This document shows, piece by piece, positions 4,710 to 60,362 of a DNA stretch of 64,000 nt (positions are counted from its first letter, which is position 1; each line of letters opens with the position of its first letter). This DNA comes from Eledone cirrhosa (lineage: Eukaryota): contig OZ024745.1 of NCBI GenBank assembly GCA_964016885.1, positions 61,752,001-61,816,000 on the forward strand. The letters are read 5' to 3'. Both the position numbers and the translations under genes were made by a program. The notes beneath the pieces are model-generated. The model was not told the origin of the DNA. It was given only the letters and a program-made list of their open reading frames with translations, and did no database searches.

Positions 4710-5262
4710 TTAGTTTAAGAGAAGTTCGAAGATAATAGTAAGATATGCACTCAGTATTTTGAATCTGTCTGCAGAATTCCCTAGACCTTTGTCACTTAGC
4801 AGAACCTTAATGACTTTAGCTATTAAAGAATCTCCCTTTTCTTTAATTCTATCGAGCATGAATGACCCCCCCACTGATTTTATAGACATCTGCTAGCTTA
4901 AGAGAAACTTATTGACAAGGAATGGTATGCCATCCGGAACCTGTTTATAGAATTCTGTCTGCCTTTGTTACTCTAAAAACATAAATAAATATAAATTAAC
5001 TATAGCTATGTAGAATTAGCTTTTAATGAATTCCCTTCTCTATCAACCAATGACCTGCACCCATCCCACTCCCACCCTCTCCTACCACTTGTAGAGACCT
5101 ATAAATACCATATTTATTTTTTGATACCCAGATTCCTGATGATTTCTAATGAATGAAACAGTTCTAGTCCTGTAGAATCTCATCTATATTAAAACTGTTA
5201 TACTCTGCTATGTATTGAGTACCTTACTTACTGTGGTTACCTCCGATTCAACCCGGAATAAC
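4710..5262 (+). mobile_element. Degenerate Penelope-like element 3' end (HHR + tail) abutting (TA)n
   Basis: The HHR is followed by the tail GTATTGAGTACCTTACTTACTGTGGTTA..CCGA, which recurs at 25841-25890 (+) and 47811-47858 (-). The 5' boundary is uncertain. Confidence 0.5.
5130..5180 (+). ncRNA. Type I hammerhead ribozyme fold (PLE-type)
   Basis: Helix I AGATTC/GAATCT; core CTGATGA at 5136-5142; helix II TTC-taat-GAA closed by T.T; GAAA at 5155-5158; helix III CAG..CTG; cleavage triplet GTA. Confidence 0.75.
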
Positions 5263-5460
<198 letters not shown>

Positions 5461-7058: not shown

Positions 7059-7240
7059 GGGATTAGCAGTATCGGTAGAGGGTCGGACGCCATGCTTTCC
7101 AGCATAGTTACGTCCCTTTACGATCTGATGTCAAATCCTGCCGAGGTTGACTTTGCCTTTCAGCCTTACGGGGTCGATAAAATAAAGTACCAGTAATGCA
7201 CTGGGTAATTGCTGGCCTTGTGCCTAAAGTAGAAACAATT
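7059..7240 (+). mobile_element. tRNA-derived SINE
   Basis: Matches the window consensus: TGGCAGTATCGGT (A-box-like), GAGTTCAAATCC (B-box-like, degenerate in this copy), GCCTTTCATCCTTACGGGGTCGATAAAATAAAGTACCAG body and AGAAACAATT end. Confidence 0.9.
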
Positions 7241-12899: not shown

Positions 12900-12967
<68 letters not shown>

Positions 12968-12973
<6 letters not shown>

Positions 12974-14880
12974 TTTAGGAATAACCAAAGAGTGCTTAGA
13001 AATACATTGTTTTATTTGCTAACAGTGAATGAGGGTGTCACTCAGCATGATGAAAAAACAAACCAAGCATAGATACATCAATTCACAAGCAGTGCAAATA
13101 CATGATTTACAGGCAGAGTATGAAAGCTTGTAAGCAGGAGTCAGTAAACAGAAAAGTTGGTTAGCTGTGGTGTAGCTTTACAGGCAGGATTGTTTATAGG
13201 AAAAATGGTGCACTCCAGTGGTATCGCCTTGTAACAGGTTGATTTCTCCATGTCCGGCCACCACCTCTATCTATTGGTTCCAGTTCCAAGCATTAGGCGA
13301 CATAATACTAGGTTTCCAAATACACGCATAGAAGATTTCTCTACAGAGGCAGTCTGCAACAAACACCTTAAATTCAAAACAGAATACAATGAAGTGAGGT
13401 AAAGCAGAGTACATGCACTGCTGGCACTCCAATGAAGGAAGTGGAAATAAAACGGGTCCACAGTCTTCACGTTCGGTTACGCAACCCAACATCCCACGTG
13501 AAATACACAGTATGGCCCAGTCTCCATCGGGCTAAAATGCCATACCATATGTAAATATACTACAGCAAATGCTATTCGTAATGGCTAGTTAGTCTCGTAG
13601 ACAGAAAGCGTATATAGAAAACTCCGCCTATGGAATTACCTAGGGCAGAGTGAAGGAAAAGTAGTTATGGTTAGGTTAATAGGCGAGCTTATTAGAAAAA
13701 GTGTAAATTTCTGGTGTGTGCAAGCACTGCAGACGATATAGTAAACTCACGGCTAGAACTACCGATGACAACAATGTTGTTTACATGTCCACCACGTGGT
13801 TTTCGTGTAGATCAATCTGGAGGTTGTAATCTTTTCACAGTAGGGTATAACCCCTCCTGGGTCGGCTGGAAGTCAATATCTACTGTCGCACGTTGCCTTT
13901 AATGTGATTTTATAATTATTAACCTAACCACCACTGCTTTTCCTTCACTCTGCCCTAGGTAATTACTTAGGCGGAATTTTCTATATACGCTTTCTGTCTA
14001 CGAGACTAACTAGCCATTACGAATAGCATTTACATATGGTATGGCACTTTTGTCCGATGCCGACTGAGTCATACCGTGTATTTCACGTGGGATGTTGGGT
14101 TGCGTAACCGAACGTGAAGACTGTGAGAGATAGCAGATATTGTTGACCCGTTTTATTTCCACTTTCTTCATTGGAGTGCCAGCAGTGCATGTACTCTGCT
14201 TTACCTCACTTCATTGTATTCTGTTTTGAATTTAAGGTGTTTGTTGCAGACTGCCTCTGTAGAGAAATCTTCTATGCGTGTATTTGGAAACCTATTATGT
14301 CGCCTAATGCTTGGAACTGGAACGAATGGATAGAGGGTGGTGGCCGGACATGGAGAAATCAACCTGTTACAAGGCGATACCACTGGAGTGTACCATCTTT
14401 CCTATAAACAATCCTGCCTGTAAAGCTGCACCACAGCTAACCAACTTTTCTGTTTACTGACTCCTGCTTAGAAACTTTCATACTCTGCCTGTAAATCATG
14501 TATTTGCACTGTTTGTGAATTGATGTATCTATGCTTGGTTTGTTTTTTCATCATGCTGAATAACACCCTCATTCATTTCTTGCTCTCCTCTCTCAACCTC
14601 CTTATGATCTATTGCACCATTTATCTGATAAACCTTTGACGTAATTTTTTATGACATTATATGTATCATGTATTGTGTGTTGCTCTATACAGCGCTGGAC
14701 TGGGACTCTTCTACTTGTCCTTCTTCCTTGTTCTGGTGACTAGGCTCGATGGAGCCTGCAACCTTTGATATATTTTTGTTTATAGGCTCCGATGATTCCT
14801 GCCCTAGGGTATGGATGAAACACTGTTAGCAAATAAAACATTGTATTTCTAAGCACTCTTTGGTTATTCCGAAACTTATA
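12968..14880. mobile_element. Long palindromic element A: arms 12968-13681 and 13917-14880, 235-bp spacer
   Basis: The arms are highly similar reverse complements with several indels. The right arm has an extra ~245 bp (14576-14820). A (TA)n tract abuts the left end. Confidence 0.9.
14786..14830 (+). ncRNA. Type I hammerhead-like fold, U4C variant, at the outer tip of palindrome A
   Basis: GCT CCGATGA t TCC TGCCC-ta-GGGTA t GGA t GAAA CACTG TT AGC, followed by AATAAA. Confidence 0.6.
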
Positions 14881-14985
14881 ACGGCTGTGTAGTATACTAG
14901 TTATCCTACATTGAGCTAAAACCACACTGACACACGAAGGACAATATATCTGTGCGTCTGTGCACATTAGTATAATTGTCAACGA

Positions 14986-15435
<450 letters not shown>

Positions 15436-18302: not shown

Positions 18303-18664
18303 AAGAGAGAATTTATCCTCATCAACTATTTCTAATCTGTAGAAATGTTATTGTGCTTAACATCAAACGAAGAGGAAAAAACCAACGAGGGAAAATATAA
18401 TTTCGGTGTATTTAAGTCTAATTTTCAAACTCTAATAAATCTACCCTTAATCTTAAAGATATTACTAATTATTTCTGTTATCGTACTGTTGTAAGTTAGC
18501 TAAGGCTCTATAGTACCCTCTCTACTGCCCCAAGTATCGTGTACTTTAGTGGGTTACGGTCCACCTGCTTTTTTACTACACCCTATCTGATATATATATA
18601 TACATATATATATATATATGTTTGTGTGTGTATATATATTCATTTTATTAAGTCGAAATAGTGA

Positions 18665-18703: not shown

Positions 18704-18932
18704 TATCATGTATATATATATATATAGTATTAAGGGTGCTATTTATGGTTATGTATGCAATAAAACCTTTAATGGTAATATATTATATATACAAGCCCTA
18801 AATAGTGAAAGATAGTCATTAATTACTATCCTATTACCAGTAAGATAAATAGCTCAATGTAATAACATCAGTTGTTTTACAGAGCAGTTATATAGAGATT
18901 ACAATAATCAAAGTTCAGTTTAAGTCATTTAT

Positions 18933-18981
18933 TTGCTTACAATTGTTTTCTCCAAACCGAGGTTTGGATTCTTCGGAGCAA
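18933..18981 (-). ncRNA. Hammerhead-like fold in the left arm of palindrome B (G12A, probably inactive)
   Basis: Mirror of 19959-20007, but GAAA reads AAAA. Confidence 0.6.
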
Positions 18982-19958
18982 CTATTTACTGATCTATAAC
19001 ATACTTGACCTCCTTTTCAACCCAAGAGACACATAAAACATATGCGCGTATTGATCAACAGTGGGGTGACATTCATCAAAAGATATAGCATGGCAATTTA
19101 CATATAAAGGTTGCAGGATAAAAATAAAAACAAGAATGAAAATAAAAATGAAAATAAAGATAAACATGAAGCGTTGGCAGTCTATGAAGATAAAGCAAGA
19201 GGAAAGTTTAGAGTAGTCAGTGCATGAAACAATCTCACGTGTAGCATGCACGCGTGTCTTATTTATACATGATTAGATTGCGTCAGAATGATATTTGCAG
19301 GGTCAGGCAGTTGAAGCAGGCAATCGATCTTATTATGTGGGTTGAATTATCAAGTCATTTATTCTCATACATCTGTATGATATACAGTCTCGGATGCAGG
19401 GGAACACCAAAATATCAAAAACTTTCAACATACTATAAACCTTATTGTATCGTAGGCAAAGCCGTACCACTGTCTTCGCTCACACCACCACTCACATAAT
19501 CCATGAGACGCGATATATATAGAGAACACGTGTCTATCGTATAATTCGCGGTGGTTCAGCATATAATCAACATATTATCAATTGACTTGATAATTCAACC
19601 CACATAATAAGATCGATTGCCTGCTTCAACTGCCTGACCCTGCAAATATCATTCTGACGCACTCTAATCATGTATAAATAAGACACGCGTGCATGCTACA
19701 CGTGAGATTGTTTCATACACTGACTACTCTAAACTTTCCTCTTGCTTTATCTTCATAGACTGCCAACGCTTCATGTTTATCTTTATTTTCATTTTTATTT
19801 TCATTCTTGTTTTTATTTTTATCCTGCAACCTTTATATGTAAATTGCCATGCTATATATTTTGATGAATGTCACCCCACTGTTGATCAATATGCGCATAT
19901 GTTTTATGTGTCTCTTGGGTTGAAAAGGAGGTCAAGTATGTTATAGATCAGTAAATAG

Positions 19959-20007
19959 TTGCTCCGAAGAATCCAAACCTCGGTTTGGAGGAAACAATTG
20001 TAAGCAA
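19959..20007 (+). ncRNA. Type I hammerhead fold, U4C variant, right tip of palindrome B
   Basis: TTGCT CCGAAGA a TCCAAACC-tc-GGTTTGGA g GAAA CAATTG TA AGCAA, then AATAAA at 20007-20012. Confidence 0.8.
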
Positions 20008-20038
20008 ATAAATGACTTAAACTGAACTTTGATTATTG

Positions 20039-20240
<202 letters not shown>

Positions 20241-23647: not shown

Positions 23648-24088
<441 letters not shown>

Positions 24089-25593: not shown

Positions 25594-25890
25594 GCAGTAA
25601 GATACTCAATACATCAGTAGAGTGTAAACATCAAGATCAATATAGAAATGGTTTCTACAGGAGTAGAACTGTTTCATTCAGAAGAAATCACCAGGAAAAC
25701 CGACTGTCATTGTAAAACTGTTGTACGTTATGTTTTCTGGTAGTTAGGGAAGGTGGCTACCCTCGAATGAACCTCATCTCCAAAATAACCACTTCCCCCA
25801 ACCTCCAGAAAACATAAATACATGTTTACACTTTAGTAATGTATTGAGTACCTTACTAACTGTGGTTAACCCCCGACTGAACCCGAAACA
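25594..25890. mobile_element. Small degenerate palindromic PLE-type element of the 5130 family
   Basis: The reverse complement of 25594-25630 matches 25822-25860, and that of 25722-25756 matches 25789-25822. The right arm lacks the HHR. Confidence 0.65.
25650..25701 (-). ncRNA. Hammerhead-like fold homologous to 5130-5180 (A6G, probably inactive)
   Basis: Minus strand: GGTTTTC CTGGTGA tttcttctgaat GAAA CAG ttctactc CTG TA GAAACC. Confidence 0.6.
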
Positions 25891-30383: not shown

Positions 30384-30619
30384 TATGCGCTCTGTGTATT
30401 TTTTGTGTTATAGCTGTGATGTAAACATATGTTGTATGTGGTGTTGTGTAAGCTGTTGCGTAAATTATGTGCTGTGTGTTTTATTGGTATATAGAGTATA
30501 TGATGTGCGTGTGTGAGTATGTGTGTTTGTGCGTGTGCATGTGTTTTCATTATTGTCGACATTTTATATTGTGCCTGTCGCATTGTGTGTGCTGTTGTGT
30601 AATATAACTTATATGTATG

Positions 30620-33157
30620 TATTGGTGTATAGAATATGTGGTGTTTATCTGTAATAGTGTATAGAATATGTGACGTGTGTGTGTACTGGTATATAGAATA
30701 TGTGACGTGTGTGTGTACTGGTGTATAGAATATGTGACGTGTGTGTGTACTGGTGTATAGAATATGTGACGTGTGTGTGTGTACTGGTGTATAGAATATG
30801 TGACGTGTGTGTGTACTGGTGTATAGAATATGTGGTATGTGTATGTACTGGTGTATAGAATATGTGACGCGTGTAATGTATTGATGTATAGAATATGTGA
30901 CATGTGTATGTACTGGTGTATAGAATATGTGACGTGTGTGTGTGTGTACTGGTGTATAGAATATGTGAGGTGTGTGTGTATTGATGTATAGAATATGTGA
31001 CGTGTGTGTGTGTGTACTGGTGTATAGAATATGTGACGTGTGTATGTACTGGTGTATAGAATATGTGACGTGTGTATGTACTGGTGTATAGAATATGTGA
31101 CGTGTGTATGTACTGGTGTATAGAATATGTGACGTGTGTATGTACTGGTGTATAGAATATGTGACGTGTGTATGTACTGGTGTATAGAATATGTGACGTG
31201 TGTATGTACTGGTGTATAGAATATGTGACGTGTGTATGTACTGGTGTATAGAATATGTGACGTGTATAGAATATGTGACGCGTGTATGTACTGGTGTATA
31301 GAATATGTGACGTGTGTATGTACTGGTGTATAGAATATGTGACGTGTGTGTGTATTGATGTATAGAATATGTGACGTGTGTGTGTGTGTACTGGTGTATA
31401 GAATATGTGACGTGTGTATGTACTGGTGTATAGAATATGTGACGTGTGTATGTACTGGTGTATAGAATATGTGACGTGTGTATGTACTGGTGTATAGAAT
31501 ATGTGACGTGTATAGAATATGTGACGCGTGTAATGTACTGGTGTATAGAATATGTGACGTGTGTATGTACTGGTGTATAGAATATGTGACGTGTGTGTGT
31601 ACTGGTGTATAGAATATGTGACGTGTGTGTGTGTACTGGTGTATAGAATATGTGACGTGTGTGTGTACTGGTGTATAGAATATGTGGTATGTGTATGTAC
31701 TGGTGTATAGAATATGTGACGCGTGTAATGTATTGATGTATAGAATATGTGACATGTGTATGTACTGGTGTATAGAATATGTGACGTGTGTGTGTGTGTA
31801 CTGGTGTATAGAATATGTGACGTGTGTGTGTATTGATGTATAGAATATGTGACGTGTGTGTGTGTGTACTGGTGTATAGAATATGTGACGTGTGTATGTA
31901 CTGGTGTATAGAATATGTGACGTGTGTATGTACTGGTGTATAGAATATGTGACGTGTGTGTGTGTACTGGTGTATAGAATATGTGACGTGTGTGTGTGTA
32001 CTGGTGTATAGAATATGTGACGTGTGTATGTACTGGTGTATAGAATATGTGACGTGTGTATGTACTGGTGTATAGAATATGTGACGTGTGTATGTACTGG
32101 TGTATAGAATATGTGACGTGTATAGAATATGTGACGTGTGTGTGTGTACTGGTGTATAGAATATGTGACGTGTGTGTGTGTGTACTGGTGTATAGAATAT
32201 GTGACGAGTGTATGTAATGGTGTATAGAATATGTGACGTGTGTATGTACTGGTGTATAGAATATGTGACGTGTGTGTGTACTGGTGTATAGAATATGTGA
32301 CGTGTGTATGTACTGGTGTATAGAATATGTGACGCGTGTAATGTACTGGTGTATAGAATATGTGACGTGTGTGTGTACTGGTGTATAGAATATGTGACGT
32401 GTGTGTGTGTACTGGTGTATAGAATATGTGACGTGTGTGTGTACTGGTGTATAGAATATGTGACGTGTGTGTGTACTGGTGTATAGAATATGTGACGCGT
32501 GTAATGTACTGGTGTATAGAATATGTGCCGTGTGTATGTACTGGTGTATAGAATATGTGACGTGTGTATGTACTGGTGTATAGAATATGTGACGTGTGTA
32601 TGTACTGGTGTATAGAATATGTGACGTGTGTGTGTACTGGTGTATAGAATATGTGACGTGTGTGTGTACTGGTGTATAGAATATGTGACGCGTGTAATGT
32701 ACTGGTGTATAGAATATGTGCCGTGTGTATGTATTGATGTATAGAATATGTGACGTGTGTGTGTGTACTGGTGTATAGAATATGTGACGTGTGTATGTAC
32801 TGGTGTATAGAATATGTGACGTGTGTATGTACTGGTGTATAGAATATGTGACGTGTATAGAATATGTGACGCGTGTAATGTACTGGTGTATAGAATATGT
32901 GACGCGTGTATGTACTGGTGTATAGAATATGTGACGTGTGTATGTACTGGTGTATAGAATATGTGACGCGTGTAATGTACTGGTGTATAGAATATGTGAC
33001 GTGTGTGTGTACTGGTGTATAGAATATGTGACGTGTGTGTGTACTGGTGTATAGAATATGTGACGTGTGTATGTACTGGTGTATAGAATATGTGACGTGT
33101 GTATGCACTGGTGTATAGAATATGTGACGTGTGTATGTACTGGTGTATAGAATATGC
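30620..33157. repeat. Minisatellite, ~32-bp unit TACTGGTGTATAGAATATGTGACGTGTGTATG, roughly 80 copies
   Basis: The 32-bp period was read directly. Variants of 34 and 36 bp (extra TG) and 18-bp short units occur. It explains the three long minus-strand ORFs. Confidence 0.97.
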
Positions 33158-33331
33158 GGTGTGTGAGCATGTGTGTGTGTGTGCTATAGTTGTGGACACA
33201 CTGTACTGTACGCCTTGTCGAGTGTAATATCCATTCTGTGTGTTGTTGTGTAGAGCATGGGTTGTATAAAATATGCGTTTCTAATGAATAGTAGCAGTAG
33301 TAGTGGTCGTGATAATAATAGTAGTAGTAAC

Positions 33332-33520
33332 AATTGTTTCTTCCTTTCGCACAAGGCTCAATAATTACCCCAGTACATTACTGGTACTTTATTTTATCGA
33401 CCACGTAAGGATGAAAGCAAAGTTAACCTACACGAGATTTGAACTCAGACCGTAAAGAGCCGTAACTCTATGCTGCAAAGCATGGTGTCCGATCCTCTAC
33501 CGATACTGCCAATCCACCAC
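33332..33520 (-). mobile_element. SINE, full length
   Basis: Consensus match. Confidence 0.9.
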
Positions 33521-33767
33521 CCTAGTAGTAGTAGTAATAATAATAGTAGTAGTAGCGGTGGTAGAAGTAGTAGTAAAAGTAGTGGTAATAGATGTAGCAA
33601 TCGTAGTAATAGGAACAGTAGTAGTTGTTTGTAGGGGTAACAGATGTAGTATTAGCAGGTGTACTACTACTACTTACTACTACTACTGCTACTACTACTA
33701 CTACTACTACTAGTATTATTATTATCATTATTATTATTATTATTATAATTAGTAGTAGTAGTAGTGC

Positions 33768-33950
33768 GGTGGATTGGCAGTATCGGTAGAGGGTCGGACA
33801 CTATGCTTTGACGCATAGAGTTACGGCCCTTGCCATTCAGAGTTCAAATCCCGCTGAGGTTGACTTTGCCTTTCATCCTTACGGGGTCGATAAAATAAAG
33901 TACCAGTAATGTACTGGTTAATTGCTGGCCTTGTGCCTAAAGTAGAAACA

Positions 33951-33953
<3 letters not shown>
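33768..33953 (+). mobile_element. SINE, full length, with (ATT)n tail
   Basis: Consensus match with intact A- and B-box-like motifs. Confidence 0.92.
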
Positions 33954-33993
<40 letters not shown>

Positions 33994-35019: not shown

Positions 35020-35435
35020 ATGGATCCAGCTGTCGTCTGTTCTACAGTGTGGATGTAATTCACTTCGCGCAGAAGTTTTGTTCAAATTTATTGCGGAAAT
35101 TTTGTGAGTTCAAATTTAATTTTGATACGATTGTGTAGCTTGACCCCCCGTCTGAACTGTCAGGCGGTGGGTCAGCTCATCTTTACCCCTCCTAGAGGTG
35201 AAAAACCTGTTTTAAAAAATTTGGTGGCAAAACATTTCAATCGTCTAACAGAAATGTTAAACGCAGCGAACGAAAATAGTGGTGGGGGGGGGGGGGACAC
35301 AGCGGTAAGAGTTGTAAGCTCGCACGCTTTAGACCCCCTTCCTTCCCAACTAACGTCATAGAGAAGGAAGGAAAAATTAAAATAAAAACAGACGAATCTG
35401 CGGAGAAAAAAAATGACGAAAACACAAATCTGGAC

Positions 35436-37153
35436 ATGGATTCCAACAACGAAAAAAAAAAATTTGAAAAATTGCATGACAATACTAATAACACAAACAA
35501 AGACACAACAAACACAAAAATAACATTTGAAAATAACACCATAACAGAAAGCAAAGCAGACGACAAGATTTCATTTGCACAGACAACAAAGAAATCTTTG
35601 ACTTATATACCCGAAAATATTTCAGATGTGGCACGAAGAATCACAGACGCCAAACAATACATAAGTGAAGGAGAGAATGGTATTTTATCGGTAAAAATGC
35701 CTCAAGAATTCACCAAAGACATTGAAAGCCGAACGGTCAAGTTCCGCACCATCAACAACACTACAAAAAAACCTGAACAGCCTTCTCAAGCAGATATCAA
35801 AACAGTACTCACAGAAGTACTTAACGAAACCACTTTCATAAGAAAAGACAGACTGTATGGAAGCCTAGCAATTATCATGAAGAACGAATCGGCGGCAAAA
35901 AAATGTGCTTTGTCACCGATTCGTTCGAAAAATTTTACCTTTTATCCATCTTATATGGGTAAAAGAACTCAACGCATATGGCTGGATGCAATGATGCCAG
36001 ATGTGGACTACTGCTGGCTCATAGCTGGCTTCATCGATCCAGTGAATGACAACGTGATTTCCATTGGGAAAACCACAGGCAATGCGTTCAGTGGAACAGG
36101 TATAGAGCTGGTAGTGCAAATGAAGCCTGAACGCATCGCCCAAATATCCGACAGAATCCTATTAGAGGGCCACGGGTATATAAACATTAGCGTGGAGGGG
36201 AAAGGCCGTACTGCCATATCTGTGCAGGAAGAGGGCACCTGAAGGCCGCTTGTCCCCAACTCAACAAAAAGAAAACCCTGCTACCAACACCAGCTCCACC
36301 ACCACAACAGATAAACAAACAACAAAACTCAGTCCCACCCAACCCGTCCCTCAGTAAAACCACACCACCACCACAACACAAACAGTCACAACACATTACC
36401 CCAAAATAAAATACAGGCCCACCCAACCTCTCACTCAATAAAACAACACAACCACCGCAGACACAACACACAACACAGTCTAACATAGTGACATCCATCT
36501 CCCCCACAAAGAAAACCAACACGGAAACATTACCACCAAACATACCTCTTCCCTCCAACACTGAAGATAACCCAACGAATTCGGAGGAAGAAACGGAGTC
36601 CTTCAGACAGATTAAAAGGAAAAAAAGAAAACATGTGCAAAACACACAAGGCCAAACAACCCCCACCCAAATCTCAACACAATCCAACAAAACAGAAAAC
36701 ACCCCTCCAGCAACAAACAAAACCAAACCTGCCCCTCCCCTCTTCGAAACACTCACACCATCCGAAAAAAAGACATTACACTATACTTACATCAACAGAA
36801 ACAATAATAAATTAAATGAACTCATATACAATAATCCTTCGGTACAAACCGAAGGTGTAAACTTTGTTTCCTCAGAAAACTACCCACATTTAAAATTAAT
36901 AAAGATCCCAATGAACCTCTACCAAAAACTAAAAAAGGATTTTAAGGAGGACGTAGGACCACCCTCTGTCAAACCCATAAACCGCGTCCTACTAAAAAGC
37001 TTTCCCCCTCCCCTTCCCCTCCCCAACACAACTCCAAACATCCCAACCCCACCACACACTGACGACCCCACACCACCACAAGACATCCCTTCACCCAACA
37101 CCCCCGACCCCATGGAAGTCGTGCAACCCGAACCCCGGGAAGCGGAAAGGTAG
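35436..37153 (+). pseudogene. LINE ORF1 (Gag-like, CCHC zinc knuckle), disrupted
   Basis: After a frameshift near 36200, 36212-36253 reads CHICAGRGHLKAAC (CX2CX4HX4C). There is an in-frame stop at 36407 and a Pro/Thr-rich tail. Confidence 0.75.
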
Positions 37154-37186
37154 GTCTCTACACTCTCCTTTGGCTCTGCCGCCCAC

Positions 37187-40100
37187 ATGGATGTGTTAAG
37201 AGTAGGATGTTTGAATGCACGTGGCCTGGGCTCAACTTGGAAGCAAGCAAAACTTCTAAATGACCTCAGGTCATGTAGTATAAATGTAATGGTTATCTGT
37301 GAGACTCGAATCAGCGTCGTGCGGCAGCTGGCCCCCACCTTCGATGACTTTGAGGTGCATGCATCTCTCTGTCAACCTGGAGGTGGGGGTGGGGTTGTCG
37401 TACTGCTGCAAAAAACACCTGGGTCTTGCCGTACAGGTTGTGCACTCGGACCCGGAGGGTCGTTTGTTGGTGCTAGACGTTGGCAGTAGTGAAAGTGCGG
37501 CATTGAGACTGGTCGCCGTCTACTCCCCTTTCGGAGCTGAACGGCCCGACTTCTTCCAGCGTTTGGAGACTTTTCTGGGAACGTCGCGTTCCCTGCTTCT
37601 AACGGGGGATTGGAATGACATCCTAGATGCACGTTGGGACTATGCAGGAGCATGTCCTAATAGAGGGGGGTGTAACAGCCTCAAGGGGTTACTCGACCGT
37701 TTTAACTTGGTCGATAGATATCGACTAGATTTTCCAACCGTGCCTACCTGGACTTGGAGAAACCACAGTGGTCAATCTAGATCGTACTTAGATAGATTCT
37801 TAGTTAGAAGTAAGGATAGGGACATATTAAGCTGTCCAGAAATGCGCACGGTTGGCTACACGGACCACAAATTAGTGACCTGCGTAGTCAATCTCGAGAA
37901 AACACATAAACAGGGTCCTGGTTACTGGAAACTTAATTTGTCTTTACCGGCAAAAGAGACTTACAGAAACCGGATTAGCAGATTAGTTAAGGAGAGGTTG
38001 ACGGGTGCAATCGTCAACAACCGATGGTGGGCATCTCTCAAAAGAGAGATTAGAACAGAATCAATAAGTTATAGCAAGATGTTAGCTGCCGATAGGAATA
38101 GAAACGAGAAAGAATTAACAGGTAAATTAGAAGAGGCAATCAAGAGCGAAGATGTGGCCAGAGTGCTGGCATCGAGGACGGCCTTGAACCAGTTTTTCGA
38201 TGCAAAGCACGAAGGCTGCGTCATTCGAAGTAAAATACGTGCTCTAGGTAATGAGGGGGCCAAAGCCGTTGGATGGGCCCGCGTGACAGAAGCTAAGAGT
38301 GGAAATCGATCCACCATCCGGTCGTTGCAAGACGAAGATGGACGGGTGATCCGGGAGCCTAAGCAGATGTGCGAGGCCTTTCAAAGGCACTTTGCCCGAT
38401 TGTTCGGGGGAGGCGAGGGTCGGGGCGGGGGCGTGGATTTTGGTCCATACCTCGACGGCCTGCCGCGTCTCTCGAGCGAAGAGGCAGAGTCCTGCGAGGG
38501 ACCAATCTCGGCTGATGAGATCGGAGATGCGCTGAGCCAATGCAGCAGACGCAAATCTCCAGGTCTCGATGGTATACCTTACGAACTTTATTTAGCAATG
38601 CCGGTCTTCTTCTCCGAACTCCTCGAAGCGCTCTACTGCAATTGGCAGCAGAACGGGAGAATTCCTTGTTCTGTAGCCAAGGGCGTAGTCACGCTGGTGA
38701 GGAAGGACGAGAACAAGGGGGATAGTATAAATAATTTTCGGCCCATAACCCTGCTAAACACAGAGTTAAAGATTTTGGCCAAGGTGTTAGCAAAGAGGTT
38801 GGCGCTTGTCGTGGGTGGCCTGGTGGGAGATGCGCAGACATGTGCTATCCCATCCAGGTCCATTCACGATAACCTCCACCTCATGCGATACATCATAGAG
38901 AGGGTTGGCAACAAACCCGGCTTCGGTGGGGCCCTGATCAACTTGGATCAGTCTAAGGTCTTCGATAGAGTCGACCATGGTTACCTGGATGCGGTGCTAG
39001 TGGCGGCTGGGTTCGGTCCTGTTTTCAGAGGCTGGATAACTGCCTTACATAGCAAACACATCTGTTCTAGGATCAAGGTGAACGGCTACGTTTCGAAGCC
39101 GTTCGAAATCACACGATCCATTCGACAGGGGTGCCCTCTCTCATCCCTTCTGTACGTATTGACTCTCGAGCCTTTACTGAGGAAGTTGGAGTTGTTGCAG
39201 GGTATCCCCCTGGAACCAGGATTGAGCAAAGCGGTGTCGGCCTACGCCGATGACGTAACAGTAATGGTATCGACCGACTCGGAGATCGAGGCGATCGGTA
39301 CCTTACTGGAGGAGTACGAAAGGTTGTCAGGAGCGAAACTGAACCGGGAAAAATCCATCGGGCTGCAACTCGGAACGTGGAGAGGCAGACCGATGCCTCA
39401 TGACGGTGTCGTCGGACACTGGACGGAGGGCCCGGTAAAGTTGCTTGGGGTCTGGTTTGGACCGGACCTCCAGGTGGAAAAGAACTGGAACGAGGTTACG
39501 AACAAGGTGTTTGCACTAACCCAGAAATGGGCCAAGTTGTAAGCTGTCCCTAAAAGGCCGGGCGGAGGTGGTGAACATTTACATAGCGTCCGTCACTTAC
39601 TACCGCCTGACTGTCGTGCCTTGCCCTAAGGAAACACTCACCACCATGGAACACATGCTCTTCCAATTTCTTTGGAAGAAGCGCCCTCCTATGGTGAGAA
39701 GATCCATCTGCTGCCAACAACCGTCGAAAGGAGGGCTGGGGATGCCGTGGTTGATGATGCGTAGGCACGCATTAAGGCTACGGCACCTACAGGTATTCCT
39801 CACTGGTCAACCGGTGTGGGCTCCGTTCGTGAAACGAGCCTTTCCGAGACTCGTCTTGCTCACCGAGCTACAGTCCTGGGTCAAGCAAAGATCCGGAAAA
39901 CTGGGAGACTGGCACACTGAGTGTGCTCAGGCGCTCAGGGCTCTCTGGCAAGCGGGCCAGGCCATCGGTGGAGAATCCACCTCATCATTCTATAGAGGGC
40001 TGGTGGCTAGCAGGGGCGATGACACCCTTGGAGAGTCGCTGGACATGGAAGAAGACGAACTGGCCAGCCTGTTCGGTAGGACTTTCGGCCCAGGACCAAT

Positions 40101-40638
40101 GGACAACTTCCAGAAGTCACTGGCCTGGCAGTGCTAACGGGGGGCTCTACCCGTTCGAGAGAGGCTCTACAGACACGGGCGCCCGGGCAGGGATCCCTCA
40201 AAAAAGATTTGCCCTAGATGCGTGCGTCACGAAGAAACCGTTGCGCACGCATTGGTGCAATGTCCGGGCATGGCTGATCTGTGGGGCTACGCCGAACGAC
40301 TGCTGTCGCGGGTGGCGCCGATTAAATTGACCGCCGAGTCCGTGATGACAATCAAACCGCCTCCCCTCTTCACAAAGGAAGCAAAGGCGGTTTTTCTGTG
40401 CGTAATAGCCATGTTGAAAGAGGTTGTTTGGTGGACACGATTGAAAGGTCTGAGGTCAGGCAACTTCCTCTCTGGCCATAGTCTGGTCTACTTCTTCCGA
40501 TATCACTTCGGAAGAAGGATAAGAATGGAGAGAGAGGTGCTTGGCCACAGGCAGTTTTATGAAAGGTGGGTGATAGTGGCGAGAATGGCTCGTGTAAATG
40601 GGCCTTCTCTGTATACCATCCTGTGGGTAAAGAAGTAA
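37187..40638 (+). pseudogene. LINE ORF2: APE endonuclease + reverse transcriptase + CCHC, disrupted
   Basis: APE motifs CLNARGL, ICET, VYSP, GDWN, SYLDRF and TDH; RT motifs SPGLDG, FRPITLLN, LDQSKVFDRV, RQGCPLS and YADD; zinc motif CPRC..ETVAHALVQC. Frameshifts at ~37410 and ~39540, stop at 40135. Confidence 0.93.
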
Positions 40639-40839
40639 AGGAGAGGGGAGCACCTTCTCCATGTGCTCCCCGGGCAAAGGATTGCACACTTTTTCGGGGG
40701 TGTGTGCAACCCCCATCACGTCCCCTCCCTTTTGAGGTTATTTTCGATTATTTTCATGTTACACCCTTTTTAGTCGATTATATGTAAACTCCCCTTTGTA
40801 TTTGTCCCTTCTTTTTATGCCTTTATGGTAAATAAAGAA

Positions 40840-40914
<75 letters not shown>

Positions 40915-40917
<3 letters not shown>

Positions 40918-42177
40918 AGCGTCCGTCACCTAATACCGCCTGACTGTCGTGCCTTGCTCTAAGGAAACACTCACCACCATGGAACGCATGCTCTTTCAAT
41001 TTCTTTGGAAGAAGCGCCCTCCTATGGTGAGAAGATCCATCTGCTAGCCAACAACCTTCGAAAGGAGGGCTAGGGATGCCGTGGTTAATGATGCGTAGGC
41101 ACGCATTAAGGCTACGGCACCTACAGGTATTCCTCACTGGTCAACCGGTGTGGGCTCCGTTCATGAGACGGGCCTTTCCGAGACTCGTCTCGCTCACCGA
41201 GCTGCAGTCCTGGGTCAAGCAAAGATCCGGAAAACTGGGAGACTGGCACACTGAGTGTGCCCAGGCGCTCAGGGCTCTCTGGCAAGCGGACCCGGCCATC
41301 GATGGAGAATCCACCTCGTCATTCTATAGGGGGCTGGTGACTAGCAGGGGCGATGACACCCTTGGAGAGTCGCTGGACATGGAAGAAGAAGAACTGGCCA
41401 GCCTGTTCGGTAGGACTTTCGGCCCGGGACCAATGGACAACTTCCAGAAGTCACTGGCCTGGCAGTGCTACCGGGGGGCTCTACCCGTTCGAGAAAAGCT
41501 CTACAGACACGGGCGCCCGGGTAGGGATCCCTCGAAAAGAATTTGCCCTAGATGCGTGCGTCACGAAGAAACCGTTGCGCACGCATTGGTGCACTGTCCG
41601 GGCGTGGCTGATCTGTGGGGCTACGCCGAACGACTGCTGTCGCGAGTGGCGCCGATTCCATTGACCGCCGAGTCCGTGATGACAATCAAGCCGCCTCCCC
41701 TCTTCACAAAGGAAGCAAAGGCGGTTTTTCTGTGCGTAATAGCCATGTTGAAAGAGGTTGTTTGGTGGACACAATTGAAAGGTCTGAGGTCAGGCAACTT
41801 CCTCTCTGGCCATAGTCTGGTCTACTTCTTCCGATATCACTTCGGAAGAAGGATAAGAATGGAGAGAGAGGTGCTTGGCCACAGGCAGTTTTATGAAAGG
41901 TGGGTGATAGTGGCAAGAATGGCTCGTGTAAATGGGCCTTCTCTGTATACCATCCTGTAGGTAAAGAAGTAAAGGAGAGGGGAACACCTTCTCCATGTGC
42001 TCCCCGGGCAAAGGATTGCACACTTTTTCGGGGGTGTGTGCAACCCCCATCAAGTCCCATCCCTTTTGAGGTTGTTTTTGATTATTGTCATTTTATACCC
42101 TTTTTACTCGGTATTATGTAAACTCCCCCTCTGTATTTGTCCCTTCTTTTTATACCTTTATGGTAAATAAAGAAATA
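40915..42177 (+). mobile_element. 5'-truncated second copy of the same LINE family
   Basis: Closely matches 39583-40840. ORF 41076-41960 is intact where the first copy has a stop. Confidence 0.95.
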
Positions 42178-42306
42178 TATCTATACCTATGTATCTGTCA
42201 CATTTGACCTCACACGCATATTCACATACATGTACACATATATACATACCCATATAGACAAATTCATTCATTATGCAATGAATATGTGCTTTCACATCAA
42301 TTCGTA

Positions 42307-48366: not shown

Positions 48367-50982
48367 CGTACACACACACATATATACATATATATACACA
48401 CACACATATATATACATATTTATATATACACATATATATATATACACATATGTATATATTATATATATATGTATATATTCAAGCACTTTCATGTTAATCA
48501 TAATTATATGTAGATCATTTGTTTTTATATTTCACTCTCTCTTCATGCAGATTCCACTCGATACCGGAAAATTCACACATATTTAATATTTTTCATTTTT
48601 CTCGTATTTAGGAATTTCATACTTTTAGAACCCATTTTGTTCGTATTTTTTTTTTCTAATGTTTGATTCATTGTTTTCTCTTTCACTGCCTCCTTGTTTT
48701 GGTGGCTTGTATATTTCTTTTTGTCATTCTTTCTCATAATTTTAGTTATTGCTTTGAAGTTTTCTTTTCTGTTGCTTTCATTTCCACTTAGCGTTTTAAA
48801 ATGGCTCTCAAGGTTCATTTCGCTGAAAGTTTTATATTCTGTTTTCTGTATTCTTCAACACACATTCAAAAGTAAACTTAACGCGTTGGTCATAGAAAGC
48901 ATAGATGCTTATATATAATTTTTTAAACCTTCATCTTCTTATGTGTGTTTGCTCATGTGAATATGTATGTCTAATTTTTCTCTTGTTTTGATAATATTTT
49001 CTCGAATCAATGTTTCCCTGACTCTCGGGATATATATAAATATAAAAGTTGACTGACAACATGTCTAGTTGAAAAATGTTTCATATTTAGGAAACATATT
49101 TATAGTAATTGCCAATGATAAATGTCCAATTTGATTTCAGAGAAAACTTGATATGAAATATTTTTTTTTACTCTCAAAACGTTACCCCAAGTTTATAAAA
49201 AAATCAGATAAGCAATAATATATAAATGAACACCAACTAAAATAATCCACAAAATAAACCAAAAGAAATAAATTTAATTAAAAAATTCATTTTTTCACAA
49301 AGTTGGTGCGAGTTTGAATCCAAGCCAATAGCAATCGGTGATTTACTAGCTTCTAGTTTGTTTTTGAGACTGCTGCTATGATCGCATTTCAGAAACAACT
49401 TAATCAAGTTAGTAGACATCACAAATCCCAGAAGCAATAACAACAACGACAACGAGAATAATAACGAAATTGACAGTAAAAAATAAACAACAAATATAAT
49501 TTTCATCACTTTTTTTGTAAACGGGGAAAAGGCCCCCAAACATTTGGTATATCAATTGATCGTCTAATAAATAATATAATGAAAAGATGATATTCCTTAT
49601 ATGCCTTATATGATTCATTTGATTCATATAAGCTATATTTAAAATTTCTATTTCTCGTATGTATGCACAGACACATACACAAACATACAGATGCACACAC
49701 ACACACAAACATATATACATATACAACTAGACACTCTTACATTACAAATTAATTTTCAAAAATATACTAAATTAGATTTCCTTACTACATTCTCAAAATC
49801 ACCCACATTTGTTTATTCCACCATAAATATTCTCCTCCAATGAAGAATCAAACAGGAAAGAGAAAAATATGTAGAGTTTACAGAACAATTGTTTTAAAAA
49901 TAATCGTACGACAGATTATTTTTAAAATTTAGTAAAAATAGAGATGTGAATTCACATTGAAAATAAGAAAAATTACTCTCCTGTCTATTTCTTTTAATTT
50001 ATAATATTCACTTTGGTTGAAATTTCGATTATTCTTCCCCTTGAATTTCTTCTTTCCCTTTCATATTTATTGCAATGTATGTACTTACTTCACTTTCATT
50101 AAATCTGTTATTTAAAAAATCTTATTTGCTCTAATCACATATTAACAAACGTAGTAAATATTAATAAACCCAGATGTAATTATTCTTTTATTTTCCAACT
50201 TCAGATCCATTAATAGAAGGAATAAACTATAGACATTCCATGGAATGGTTAATAACAGCCAGGAAAGAGGATCAACAGATAGAAAACCGAGTATGAACTT
50301 AGACAATTGTGTCAAAATTGAAAACGTAGATCCCAACCCTACGATAGGGAATGTCCGACATTTCTTTGTTGAACAATGTAGCTACAACTAAATAAATAGA
50401 ATTCGAATGACATCATTTGAAAATATACATAGCTGACAAGAAGCAATTATTAACAATGAAGTAACTGATATAAAGAGATAGGGTTTAGTTCCTGTATAAC
50501 TAATAAAGGACTCCGACTCTAGGTTGTTTGTCGAGTCACTGATCACGCATCAAAACCCCTTTCGCCTGGCTATTCCACCCATCCCCAAACTATACTTTCA
50601 TACGTTTCATGACCGCATACTCATCAACAAAGTGCTTCCAAGACCAACAAAAAATAGTCCCTCATCGTTGAAGTGCTTTGCTTCAAACTTCAAGCATGGC
50701 ATACAAGAGTATATGAAATTAACGTACACCACTATGCACAATTTCGATTTCTGATTAATCTTTATAGATGAGAAGAGAGTGATAGATTGGCAGAATAAAA
50801 TGCTTTTGCGGTATTTGGTCTGGGTTCTTTACATTCTAATTTCAAATTTCACCAGAGACAACTTCACCTTTTATCTCTATAGAATAAAGTAGCAGTCAAG
50901 TATTGGGGGTGGTTTTATCGACTTAGCCAAAAATTAGAAATCAACTTCCGCCAAAATTAGAAATCATTATTTATTTGGATTG

Positions 50983-51371
50983 CCAAGGGTGGTGCATTGG
51001 CAGTATCGGTAGAGGGTCGGATACCATGCTTTGACGCATAGAGTTACGGCCCTTGCCATTCTGAGTTCAAATCCCGCCGAGGTTAACTTTGCCTTTCATC
51101 CTTACGGGGTCGATAAAATAAAGTACCAGTAATGCACTGGGATAATTGCTGGCCTTGTGCCAAAAGTAGAAACAATTATTTATTTGGATTGGCAGTATCG
51201 GTAGAGGGTCGGACGCTATGCTTTGCAGCAAAGAGTTACGGCCCTTTATGGTTTGAGTTCAAATCCCGCCGAGGTTAACTTTGCCTTTCATCGTTACGGG
51301 GTCGATAAAATAAAGTACCAGTAATACACTGAGATAATTGCTGGCCTTGTGCCAAAAGTAGAAACAATTAT
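50983..51371 (+). mobile_element. Two tandem SINEs (50991-51180, 51186-51371); older diverged copy at ~50785-50930
   Basis: Consensus matches. Confidence 0.92.
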
Positions 51372-51930
51372 TTATAGATGAGAAGATAAGCTTATTAATT
51401 ATACACCATGGCACAGGAAAAGCTCATTCATTGGCAATGTAGTCGCTTAATTTGTTGACTAATTAATTTGATTATTTATTTACTTATATATTTATGCACA
51501 ACGTATATTAAATGAACTAAAAAAAATTAATTTTGTTATGCATCAAATATTTTTTGAGATAAAAGATTATTTTGTGAAATGTAATCAATTGTAAGCACAT
51601 TTTTATAGATATTCATGGCTTATAATTTTATAATGTGTTTGTATACATGCATTAAAAAAATCAAGATAAGCGAACACAGGCTATGTTGCGCTTAAAGTAA
51701 TTAAGTAATTAACAACGTTATCAAATGAATGTATAGTTATGTAAATGAGACTGTTTAGAAATAAATGTTTATATTCTATCAAATTACTCCAAATAGAAAT
51801 GACAGTATCCTAATATTTGTCTAGTCACAAATATTAACAGAATGTGTTTGTAGTTTTTTAACGTTTAATAGCGAAGCCTATAATTTAAAGATAGGAGGCG
51901 TACTACATAAAAAAAAATCAGGTTACCAGA

Positions 51931-53860: not shown

Positions 53861-54068
53861 ATAATAATAATAATAATAATAATTGTTTCTACTTTAGGCA
53901 CAAGGCCAGCAATTACCCAGTGCATTACTGGTACTTTATTTTATCGACCCTGTAAGGATGAAAGGCAAAGTCAACCTCGGCGGGATTTGAACTCAGATCG
54001 TAAAGGGACGTAACTATGCTGGAAAGCATGGTGTCCGACCCTCTACCGATACTGCCAATCCACCGCCA

Positions 54069-54145
<77 letters not shown>

Positions 54146-54522
54146 ATAATAATAATAATAATGATAATAATAATAATTGTTTCTACTTTTGGCACAAGGC
54201 CAGCAATTATCCAGTACATTACTGGTACTTTATTTTATCGACCCTGTAAAGATGAAAGGCAAAGTTAAGTTCAACGGGATTTGAACTCAGACCGTAAAGG
54301 GACGTAACTATGTTGGAAAGCATGGCGTCCGACCCTCTACCGATAATAATAATAGTAATAATAATAATAATAATAATAATTTTTTCTTATATAGGCACAT
54401 GGTCAGCAATTTTTGGGGAGGAGAAAGTCGATTAAATCGACCCCAGTGCGTGACTGGTATTTTATTTTATCGACCCCGTAGGGATGAAAAGCAAAGTTAA
54501 CCTCGGCGGGATTTGAACTCAG
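53790..54522 (-). mobile_element. Three SINEs (53880-54066, 54174-54345, 54385-54522) separated by (CTA)n(ATA)n tracts
   Basis: Consensus matches. The third is a different subfamily and is interrupted at its B-box by a LINE 3' end. Confidence 0.9.
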
Positions 54523-56310
54523 ATATTTCTTTATTGGCCACAAGGGCTAATTTGAAGAAAAACATTACAGACGGCACAGAACGGTACAGGACGATACAAA
54601 GTGGGTTTCGGCCGTGTAAAAATGATTATAACAAGAAGATAGACATATCAAAAAAATTCAAACAACAAAAATTCCCCAATAGTGGGGAAACTTCCGATGG
54701 TCGCTCGTGGCGAAAACCACACAAAAGACCACGGCCACCCTAACCATCAGGGCAAGCGCACTCTCTCACTTTTCCACTCCTCAGTCTACAGGCGCATACT
54801 CAGAGCGGGACCGTTCACTCGGACCAGACTCACCACTTTCACCCACCTTTCAACAAACTTACTAGAAGACAGCACTTGTCTCTCCACCCTGATTTTCCTC
54901 TACAAGTGAAATTTGAAAAAGTTAATCAGGGATTCGCCGAAGAGGAAAGTGTCCGTCTTCAATCTTTTCAACCTTGTCCACCATACAATCTCTTTCGCCA
55001 TGGCTACCAGGAAGATGAAAACTGCCTGCCCTTCCTCCTCCTTAAAGGAGGACGGCGGGGCTATCTGCAAATGAACTCAGTCGATAACCGGATCCGTCCT
55101 TCACGTGACAGCAAATGTTCGACATAGCTCCACAAGTCAGTAATGCTAGGACACTGAACGAGTGCGTGCACAACGGTTTCGTCGCTCTGTGCGCATCTCG
55201 ACAGGTCTGGCTGACGTCACTTCCGTGCCTGTAGAGCTTATCTCGAACCGGCAACGCTCCCCGGTAGCACTGCCAGGCCAGGGATTTCTGGATGTTGTCC
55301 ATAGGCCCCGGGCTGAAAGTTCTCTTGAAGAGAGCGAACAGCTGATCGTCTTCGACGCCCAGGGTCTCCCCGGGAACGTCGTCACTCTTCCCCTCCACTA
55401 GTCCGCTATAGAAGGCCGAGGTGGATGTTCCACCGATACTAGTGCCCAGCTGGTAGAAGGCTGTGAGCGCGTGGAGACATTCCAGCTTCCAAGCGCTATC
55501 CCTCCGTCTTTTCATGATCCAGAACTGCAGATCCGTTAATGAGACGAGCTGGGGAAAAACACGTCTGGCAATTCGGTGACTACACCTGTTCACCGCCAAA
55601 GAAGCACCAGAGATGTCGCAGCCTCAGCACGTATTTGCGCATCGTCAGCCACGGCCTGCCCACCCCTCCACACAACGGGTGTTGACAACAGATGGATCGT
55701 CTGACCATAAAAAGCGGAAGAGGAGGCGCTCCATTTTTGTCAGAATTGGGCCGGGACAAGGCAACACGGTTAGGATGTAGCAGATGACGGATGCGATGAT
55801 CACATTCGCCACCTTTTCCCGACCTTTCAGAGACAGCTTCCTCTCGGCCCATTTCTGGGCGAGAGAGGCCACCCTGTTCGTCACCTCGCTCCAGTTTTTC
55901 TCCATCTGGAGGTCCGGACCGAACCAGACTCCGAGCAATTTAACTGGTCCTTCTATCCAACGCTCCACGACTCTGTCGGGCGTCATGGACTTGCCTCTCC
56001 AGGTGCTGTGCTGCAATACCACCGACTTTTCCTGGTTTAACTTTGCTCCTGTCACTGCTTCATATTCCTTGAGAGCGGTGCCGTGCATCTGGACATGTCC
56101 GGCGCTTGACATCACCATGGTGACGTCATCGGCGTAAGCCAATACGGATCTCCAACATCCTAGTTCGCGTGGGACGGCTCTCATCACCTCCAATTTGTGC
56201 AGTAACGGCTCTAGGGCCAATACGTACAAGAGTGACGAGAGAGGACCACCCTGACGCACCGAGCGCATGATGCTGAACGGCTGTGACAGATGACCGTTCA
56301 CCTTCACAAC
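54523..56310 (-). mobile_element. 5'-truncated, decayed L1/Tx1-type LINE of a related family
   Basis: SVRQGGPLSSLLYVLALEPLL, YADD, GPVKLLGVWFGPDLQ and PGPMDNIQKSLAWQCYRGALP. The 3' end reads AATAAAGAAATATCT, like the plus-strand copies. Confidence 0.92.
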
Positions 56311-56353
56311 TGAGAATATATCTCAGAAACAATAATGAAAGAAAATAAAAATG

Positions 56354-59300: not shown

Positions 59301-60332
59301 GGACTAAAAATTTCAAAAGTTCCATTTACTGCTGAAATGAAAAACACAGAAAAATCAAAGCAGGTAAAAGTAACTGCAAAGAAAGAACTGCTACAGAAAC
59401 TGGCTAAGAAATGGGTAGAAAAGCCTCTGTATGGAAAATACCCAGAAAGAGCTAACAATCCTGATGTTGACAAAACTTTAACCCATCAGTGGTTGGCATC
59501 CTCTGGACTGAAATCGGAGACTGAAGGACTGATTATATCAGCACAAGATCAGTGTCTGCCAACAAAAAATTACAAAGCCAACATAATAAAAAATGGATGC
59601 AACCCATTATGCCGTGTATGTAAAAAACAACCAGAGACCATTGATCATATAATTTCAATGTGCAGTCCTATAGCACCAACCGAATACCTAAACAGGCATG
59701 ACAGAGCTGCACAATACATACATTGGATAATGTGTAAGCATTTTGACCTGCCCCATCAAAAGAATTGGTGGGAGCATCAACCACCACCCATACTTGAAAA
59801 AGATCACATCTCAATCTTGTGGAACTTTAGCATCCAAACAGACCGAAAAATAGATGCAAATAGACCTGATATAATACTGAAGGATTTTAAAAAGAGGGTA
59901 TGCCTGCTAATTGATATGTCCGTTCCAATAGACAAGAATGTATCTATAAAAACATTTGAAAAATTGAGCAAGTATAAGTACCTGGAGATAGAAATTGGAA
60001 AAATGTGGAAATTGAGAACTAAAACAATACCAGTGGTTGTAGGCGCTCTAGGAATGATACCTAAGGGGTCTAATGATTACTTATCGCAAATCCCAGGAAA
60101 TAAACCCGCGTATAGGAGAAATACAAAAGATAGTTCTAATGGGAACTGCCCATCATATACTAAGAAAGATTCTGTCAATATAAGTACATCACAAGTCTAA
60201 ACACCTAAAGATGCACGTGTGTGTATGTATGTATGTTCTTTCTTGAACATGGCGGACCTTGTTGTCTCTTGAGGTCACTGGTTGTGACTTGGTGATAACT
60301 CGTAAGAACATAAAGCAAGATAAATGCAACTG
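56391..60332 (+). mobile_element. Near full-length R4/Dong-clade non-LTR retrotransposon (RT + CCHC + REL endonuclease), disrupted
   Basis: N-terminal REKWSREDN; RT motifs WKSPGKD, RPITCL, EQKGC, GIFQGDSLSP, FYMDD and YKYLG; CRVC..ETIDHIISMC, RHD, RPDII, KLSKY and PVVVGALG. Flanked by (TAA)n on both sides; several stops and frameshifts. Confidence 0.9.
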
Positions 60333-60362
60333 TAATAATAATAATAATAATAATAATGATAA

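Follow-up and report, generated by a model that had tools for sequence, protein, structure and literature searches.

Penelope-like elements (PLEs) that carry an endonuclease (EN+ PLEs) are described in PMC8557442 as inserting with an inverted, 5′-truncated copy and with a tail on one side only. The same paper calls the way in which the inverted copy and the tail are formed unresolved. In its section 11 an RWK and a DKT motif, a CxCX5C linker, a missing CCHH motif, a CxxC and a CxH motif, a hammerhead ribozyme (HHR) and a (TA)n target are given as hallmarks of the Hydra clade, with a length below 3 kb as a tendency and not as a rule. Self-priming was proposed as the origin of PLE inverted repeats in PMC3846280. 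According to PMC11167929, the protein of a PLE from Anolis cuts and extends both strands in vitro and is predicted to form a dimer; it initiates at two internal positions of the RNA, which mark the borders of the tail, and a repeated signal does not figure in the account given of these sites. HHR cleavage was dispensable for in vitro insertion by this element. Here we describe how a long palindrome in the genome of Eledone cirrhosa compares with these systems.

The window, that is the whole stretch of DNA that was analysed, comprises 64,000 nucleotides (assembly GCA_964016885.1, contig OZ024745.1, positions 61,752,001 to 61,816,000 of the forward strand). A preliminary description of the window had reported a palindrome with arms of ∼715 and ∼965 bp around a 235-bp spacer, and these values hold: self-alignment yields inverted arms of 714 bp (12968–13681, minus strand) and 964 bp (13917–14880, plus strand), and the exact arms leave a spacer of 235 bp (13682–13916). 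The arms of this palindrome A are 90.8% identical if gaps are counted and 96.1% identical by substitutions in the core alignment; the divergence consists of 3.9% substitutions and of indels of 3, 14, 19 and 247 bp. Both outer ends lie in (TA)n runs (12909–12970 on the left, 14990–15079 on the right) and are of different construction. The left arm passes directly into (TA)n without a tail, whereas the right arm first continues for ∼110 bp. This one-sided tail (14878–14989, plus strand; 14881–14989 if counted from the end of the arm) is absent from the preliminary description. It matches the beginning of the following unit in tandem donor elements and stops in (TA)n just short of the position of the donor's second hairpin (see below). 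The central junction bears no TA run, and the two copies meet head to head at 13916/13917 with an overlap of 1–2 nt.

A genome search with the right arm returned 1652 first-look candidates, of which 40 were scored. At other loci the spacer sequence occurs in the opposite orientation and collinear with the arm, and the element extends more than 1.2 kb further 5′. The left arm and the spacer therefore form a single copy, and the right arm represents another, shorter one. The left arm is the 3′ portion of an untailed, 5′-truncated copy of a family that we call family A; the spacer continues the element's 3′ UTR by another 235 bp and belongs to this longer left copy, and the right arm derives from the identical 3′ UTR region as a further 5′-truncated copy. 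A tblastn search of the window found no part of the element's ORF. A complete family A unit of 4685 bp is present at locus L042, where an inverted untailed copy is followed by a short pLTR with tail, a decayed ORF with RT and GIY-YIG domains, a 3′ UTR of ∼2 kb, the HHR, the tail and (TA)n. The related family B, which forms a second palindrome in the window, has an intact ORF of 826 aa at locus L220.

Motif reading of these ORFs gave a single frame with RT first and GIY-YIG as its C-terminal domain in A (L042, decayed) and in B (intact). Both carry RWR, with R replacing the K of RWK, and DKT in place of DKG. The EN has no CCHH motif and is preceded by a CxCX5C linker, and CxxC and CxH motifs lie past its core, as in the Hydra clade; in the decayed L042 copy the linker and EN motifs read CNC-X5-F (the third C is lost), CNLC and CPR. 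A canonical HHR motif is predicted in the pLTR and could be parsed in 48 A and 45 B copies. The preference for (TA)n seen at both ends of palindrome A also agrees with the flanks of the other loci. With 4685 bp (A) and ∼4700 bp (B) the units are longer than the 3 kb below which Hydra-clade elements tend to stay. By eye they resemble Hydra-1_Obim. No Pfam family was assigned to the ORF pieces or to the intact B ORF, homologues carry PF26215/PF28514 and in one case PF00078, and a PDB sequence search with a 40-sequence profile gave 0 matches. A partial tandem (pLTR), an inverted 5′-truncated copy and a one-sided tail were found together at A loci L042, L120 and L126 and at B loci L172, L219 and L220. 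From this we have next to no doubt that palindrome A is a PLE insertion: it consists of two 5′-truncated Hydra-clade copies, head to head in (TA)n, and represents a known clade in decayed form. Two other classes were considered and rejected. Non-LTR retrozymes are short non-coding HHR monomers in tandem, and the arms here come from the 3′ UTR of a coding element of 4.7 kb; a MITE or foldback DNA transposon, whose terminal inverted repeats are fixed and enclose a constant body, does not fit arm lengths and spacers that vary at every locus, nor asymmetric ends. The intact Hydra-type ORF of L220 (2724–5201 of the locus, minus strand; G000:C2 near 230.085 Mb) bears an asparagine-rich stretch between RT and EN that resembles the N-rich inserts of Adineta PLEs.

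An HHR-like motif at the right tip of palindrome A, parallel to one in palindrome B, had been noticed before, and we could identify it as a type I hammerhead motif (14786–14830, plus strand) with its counterpart at 19964. Its order is GCT-CCGATGA-stem II-GAA-AC-ACT-GT-T^AGC, with the core CCGATGA at 14789, GAAA at 14817–14820 and predicted cleavage after GUU at 14827. The fold is conserved in homologues, as stems I and II are kept in 40 of the 48 parsable family A copies; the corresponding tally for family B (10/45) is a parsing artefact and was not used. Few parsable family A copies (3/48) have the CCGA core that the A tip shares with B, and most (40/48) have CTGATGA; in family B this U4C variant is fixed, with 45/45 parsable copies. 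U4C reduces the in vitro activity of a viroid HHR (PMC3088659, seen in part). Rfam searches of the window, of 14500–14990 and of the B junction returned no HHR or other meaningful match.

The left arm had been described as lacking 14576–14820, which would remove the ribozyme core exactly up to GAAA. The deletion is real and lies at 13026/13027 of the left arm, and it measures 247 bp (14576–14822 or 14574–14820) instead of 245 bp; CA at both breakpoints, a microhomology of 2 bp, had been counted twice. It removes most of the left-arm HHR and stops 5–7 nt before the predicted cleavage site. Among the loci compared, the deletion junction occurs at palindrome A only, and other pairs keep the HHR in both arms. 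The ribozyme is therefore not lost by a programmed removal; the deletion probably arose later, by decay.

Palindrome B (18727–20046) has a left extension, the tail, of 167 bp (18727–18893), a tailed arm (18894–19360) and an untailed arm (19580–20046). By exact arms its spacer measures 219 bp and not the 225 bp given earlier, and it is carried by the tailed copy. In A it lies on the untailed copy; the two spacers are therefore not equivalent parts. The view that A is unrelated to B holds for the spacers, which show no similarity (local scores of 23 and 31, compared with 105 in the HHR-tail region), and fails for the rest: the HHR and tail regions can be aligned, and the ORFs are 67% identical across 220 aa of RT. 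A and B are thus sister families of Hydra-clade PLEs with a common insertion layout, which supports the earlier suggestion of a shared mechanism of formation and a link to PLEs. Some further features of family B were seen. The family is young, with arms 0.7% apart, and its tailed copies have 5′ ends that cluster at −53 to −78, within HHR stem II. In the window, the tailed B arm has one altered base in the GAAA half of the HHR core (18930–18980). At 20042–20110, 33 TC units separate the untailed end of B from (TA)n; the element itself ends in two. Shorter TC runs occur at other B ends (119 exact matches with at least four units; a separate (TC)n tally captured some of the ends only). The run could stem from slippage during priming or from expansion at a later time.

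The window contains several other repeats. A 180-bp interspersed repeat with A- and B-box-like motifs lies at 7060–7239 and in at least 14 more places (among them a tandem at 50950–51375, 53884–54523 and an inverted pair at 33312–33973); by eye it is probably a tRNA-derived SINE, and ARAGORN found no tRNA. A LINE with matches to endonuclease, RT and zf-RVT covers 35280–42199 (plus strand) and 54801–56322 (minus strand). Its 3′ 1.28 kb is present in tandem duplicate (39583–40862 and 40916–42199, 95%) across an (ATCT)n run, and a relative with 66% identity lies at 54801–56304. Two RT-bearing LINE pieces follow each other at 57765–62310 (plus strand), and a 32-bp minisatellite of ∼79 copies occupies 30614–33156.

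The similar spacers of A and B had been taken as a sign of a shared mechanism with a preferred spacer of ∼230 nt, coupled with removal of the ribozyme core from one arm; a broad distribution of spacer lengths would speak against it. We collected loci by exact tail patterns, which match 198 times for A and 396 times for B. The A sample comprises 79 loci (the first 80 listed tail matches that had not already been collected, minus one duplicate); for B, 60 loci (59 by list order and one hand-picked tandem) minus two duplicates and the hand-picked one left 57. Spacers were determined by mapping to the reference; an estimate by self-BLAST, noisy where (TA)n extended the arms, led to the same conclusion, and the spacers of L104 and L121, which have internal switches, are rough. 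The distribution is broad. Family A spacers range from 5 to 3299 bp (n = 42, median 269, interquartile range 87–720) with 3 between 200 and 260 bp, and family B spacers from −8 to 3518 bp (n = 34, median 528) with one in this range. When partners were shuffled, no excess appeared at 200–260 bp (A: 4 observed versus 2.6, p = 0.27; B: 0 versus 1.9), and in sets selected by the untailed end only 2/24 A and 0/6 B spacers fell there. What remains in favour of a rule is that 235 and 219 bp lie within 16 nt of each other, as do 2.5% of random pairs of an A and a B spacer. This agreement is uncommon and needs no rule; 235 bp is also close to the family A median. There is thus very probably no preferred spacer length, and with the spacer on different arm types in A and B and with a private deletion, the combined reading of preferred spacer and ribozyme removal is highly implausible. 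In the model proposed below, two copies are truncated at different points and the spacer is the difference between the two truncation points.

A constant feature of these insertions is the combination of ends. Among the loci selected by the tail, 43/79 in family A are head-to-head pairs, 26 are solo, and at 10 loci the inverted piece extends to neither of the ends; the corresponding numbers for family B are 39/57, 13 and 5. The partner is untailed in all 43 A pairs and in 35 of the 39 B pairs. The other four B cases are tandems whose far end proves to be untailed: the tandem of L174 ends without a tail, and L179, L204 and L218 run on in tandem as far as such an end. We also sampled by the untailed end (80 A and 30 B loci, partly the same loci as before). 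A complete partner was found at 37/80 A and 10/30 B loci and was tailed in every case, never untailed; 26 A and 7 B loci had no partner, and the rest were truncated or ran past the retrieved DNA. Complete pairs accordingly have one tailed and one untailed end in 82/82 tail-selected and 47/47 untailed-selected cases, the two sets overlapping. Two independent adjacent insertions, to which (TA)n as a common target might lend itself by clustering copies, or a fold-back artefact of the assembly are scarcely credible explanations of such pairs: adjacent insertions do not fit a central junction of palindrome A that lacks a TA run, an artefact does not fit arms that differ by 3.9% and several indels, and neither accounts for a layout that recurs at 82 loci with exact end points and strictly one end of each kind.

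Another route to inverted arms is self-priming, in which a single cDNA turns back on itself and serves as the template of the inverted arm, as PMC3846280 proposed for PLE inverted repeats. Several observations can be read in this way. Arms are more alike within than between loci, with median divergences of 3.8% versus 8.1% for A (23 hand-listed pairs) and 0.7% versus 5.2% for B (21 pairs), though the partner is the nearest tailed arm in only 9/23 A pairs (17/21 in B). The copies abut closely, with median gaps of −1 and 0 nt, and the spacer measures 5–24 nt in 6/42 A pairs. However, a fold-back copy cannot contain sequence that is absent from the first strand. At palindrome A the spacer is present in the left copy only and the tail in the right copy only; each copy has sequence absent from the other, so neither arm need have been copied from the other. 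The untailed copy is the longer one in 28/43 A and 20/35 B pairs, and 13/37 tailed partners start at or after position −20, so that they barely or not at all overlap the untailed arm. Most pairs contradict fold-back, which would need an additional switch of template to RNA to remain tenable, and we regard it as decidedly improbable. The lengths of the two arms are correlated (Spearman 0.40 in both families), which indicates that the truncations are not fully independent; the model proposed below does not explain this. The 5′ ends of the tailed arms are denser near the first start site (6 in the −20 to +9 bin, 5 in the next and 1–3 further 5′), a suggestive pile-up that would be expected if both enzymes shared one RNA.

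In the tandem donors both end points lie directly before the same motif, which consists of ATAAC, one base, GCTC, an inner stem-loop, TT and GAGCT. The two copies of this bulged hairpin are spaced by 112 nt (A) and 167 nt (B), matching the lengths of the tails. At palindrome A, hairpin 1 occupies 14884–14916 (plus strand), 4–7 nt 3′ of the untailed end point. In family A the hairpin reads GCTC, inner stem-loop, TT and GAGC, and the copy at palindrome A has GCTG. At the collected loci of this genome, 115 of 257 distinct RCTC...TTGAGY strings contain an inner stem of at least 3 bp, compared with 14 when shuffled. Two further families of this genome (C and G), among those listed, likewise have their ends directly ahead of the motif or a tail beyond it. 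Across 36 motif clusters of the genome, our own parser placed an HHR 7 times upstream of the hairpin, twice downstream and 4 times on the opposite strand, which is a weak link between the two motifs and was not counted as evidence.

Three more hairpin-bearing sequences were noticed in the window. A stub of a third HHR family at 5133–5263 (plus strand) has a CTGATGA core at 5136, a hairpin at 5202 and a tail up to 5262, followed by (TA)n; elsewhere this family ends at −13 to −5 or +55 to +62 relative to the hairpin, often head to head. A relative of it on the minus strand (25596–25885) has two closely spaced hairpins (25623 and 25595) and an inverted tail piece (25822–25885). Another abundant hairpin family is represented at 23724–23793 (minus strand, hairpin at 23785) and at 18511–18580, with 21 identical instances among the loci collected.

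Outside this genome, we searched metagenome contigs with an alignment of 40 proteins and obtained 77 loci; the match reaches the N-terminus in 47, of which 46 have enough upstream DNA. The motif lies upstream of 30 of these 46 related ORFs, with none on the opposite strand, one inside an ORF and 0.6 after shuffling. A looser scan of 37 of these loci gave two hairpins in 23, one in 9 and none in 5. Inner pair 1 is Watson–Crick in 51/57 instances (35 C-G, 15 T-A, 1 G-C) versus a shuffle mean of 29.4 and maximum of 41, and inner pairs 2 and 3 in 33/48 and 23/31 versus shuffle means of 13.8 and 8.0; the instances were anchored on sequence alone and include related elements, which inflates the covariation. 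The outer stem is almost invariant in sequence. In a manual count, 13 of 15 readable metagenome element ends lie within ∼10 nt before a hairpin (L265 and L294 judged by eye; the count covers ends away from contig edges), and the ends of L272 and L276 are the two exceptions. On the 3′ side of the hairpin the sequence reads GAGCACT in 48/57 instances (metagenome loci L261–L321 and the published consensi in PMC8557442, File S7) and GAGCTA in families A and B; the near-palindrome GAG-YR-CTC may be a separate site for protein or pairing. By eye, the published consensus of Hydra-1_Ajap (PMC8557442, File S7) starts with two copies of the hairpin, and those of Hydra-2_Amil and Hydra-2_Ajap contain one each. 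The hairpin is not mentioned in the portions of the main text of PMC8557442 consulted for this purpose. A literature search, which covered sources other than subscription journals and part of PMC11167929, found no publication on the twin hairpin.

Taken as a whole, these observations are best explained by two-ended priming from two start sites on the RNA with the cDNAs joined head to head, a reading that we hold to be probable. The GIY-YIG domain would cut both strands within (TA)n, and hairpins 1 and 2 would place a pair of proteins on the RNA. One target end would prime right before hairpin 1 and give rise to the untailed arm; the other would prime right before hairpin 2 and yield the tailed arm, and the tail would equal the distance between the hairpins, 112 nt for A and 167 nt for B. 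Each cDNA would truncate early at its own point, and repair would join both cDNA ends into a head-to-head pair. The greater likeness of arms within a locus and the behaviour of the Anolis protein in vitro agree with this reading. Against it count the copies without an inverted partner, about a third (26/79 A and 13/57 B), the inverted pieces that reach neither end (10 A and 5 B loci), the correlated arm lengths, the partner that is the nearest tailed arm in only 9/23 A pairs, and, in the metagenomes, the 2/15 ends that do not precede a hairpin and the 5/37 loci that show none. That the hairpins act as a positioning signal on the RNA, with binding and start sites deduced from genomic ends, is a step we favour with somewhat less confidence. 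A hairpin pair that places two RT-EN subunits throughout the Hydra clade, so that both cut ends of (TA)n are primed at once, one per hairpin, has in our view even chances of being correct.

The hairpins might instead act on DNA, in EN recognition or in the resolution of an intermediate, with the tail resulting from EN-mediated resolution. PMC8557442 attributes the tail to such resolution, the D. virilis tail is required for EN recognition of plasmid DNA according to PMC11167929, and an almost invariant outer stem is what a protein site would show. Yet covariation in the inner stem, together with variable loops, argues for a folded single strand; since the inserted DNA does not include hairpin 2, this hairpin must act on the template; and the start sites of the Anolis element were mapped on RNA at the borders of the tail (PMC11167929). 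We therefore consider action on DNA unlikely. The palindrome A locus itself is an ordinary decayed PLE insertion. If the reading of a hairpin pair on the RNA is true, it would explain the PLE tail, the inverted arm and the rule of one end of each kind together, and would supply a telomerase-related RT that initiates internally on its RNA with a minimal cis-signal. Because a conserved twin hairpin lies behind both end points, the rule is strict and the young family B has an intact ORF (L220), the formation of inverted copy and tail is now open to the existing in vitro assay.

In comparison with the published HHR system, the hammerhead described here has the same short stem III with a small loop and differs in the U4C core, found in the copy at palindrome A and in all parsable B copies. 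Pairs of HHRs on opposite strands, ∼100–700 bp apart, had already been noted there, i.e. the distance is variable. In L1 twin priming, both target ends prime on the RNA and the product is an inversion without duplication; here, in contrast, two fixed starts near the 3′ end would give a duplicated inverted arm. The Penelope elements of Adineta vaga (PMC3846280) are similar in their head-to-head inverted pLTR with an optional tail on one of them and in the microhomology-mediated deletions of decayed copies; self-priming was proposed for them, and the present counts argue against a simple fold-back. PAc, the Poseidon element of Anolis carolinensis (PMC11167929), likewise has two starts that bound the tail, an AT-rich target and an HHR upstream. 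It belongs to another clade, and its starts lie within one AC-rich stem-loop inside the ORF, whereas in the Eledone families the hairpin is repeated upstream of the ATG and each end is placed ahead of a separate copy. With the Hydra clade as described in PMC8557442, families A and B have in common the order of RT and GIY-YIG, the motifs, the 3′ HHR, the (TA)n target, the inverted copy and the one-sided tail.
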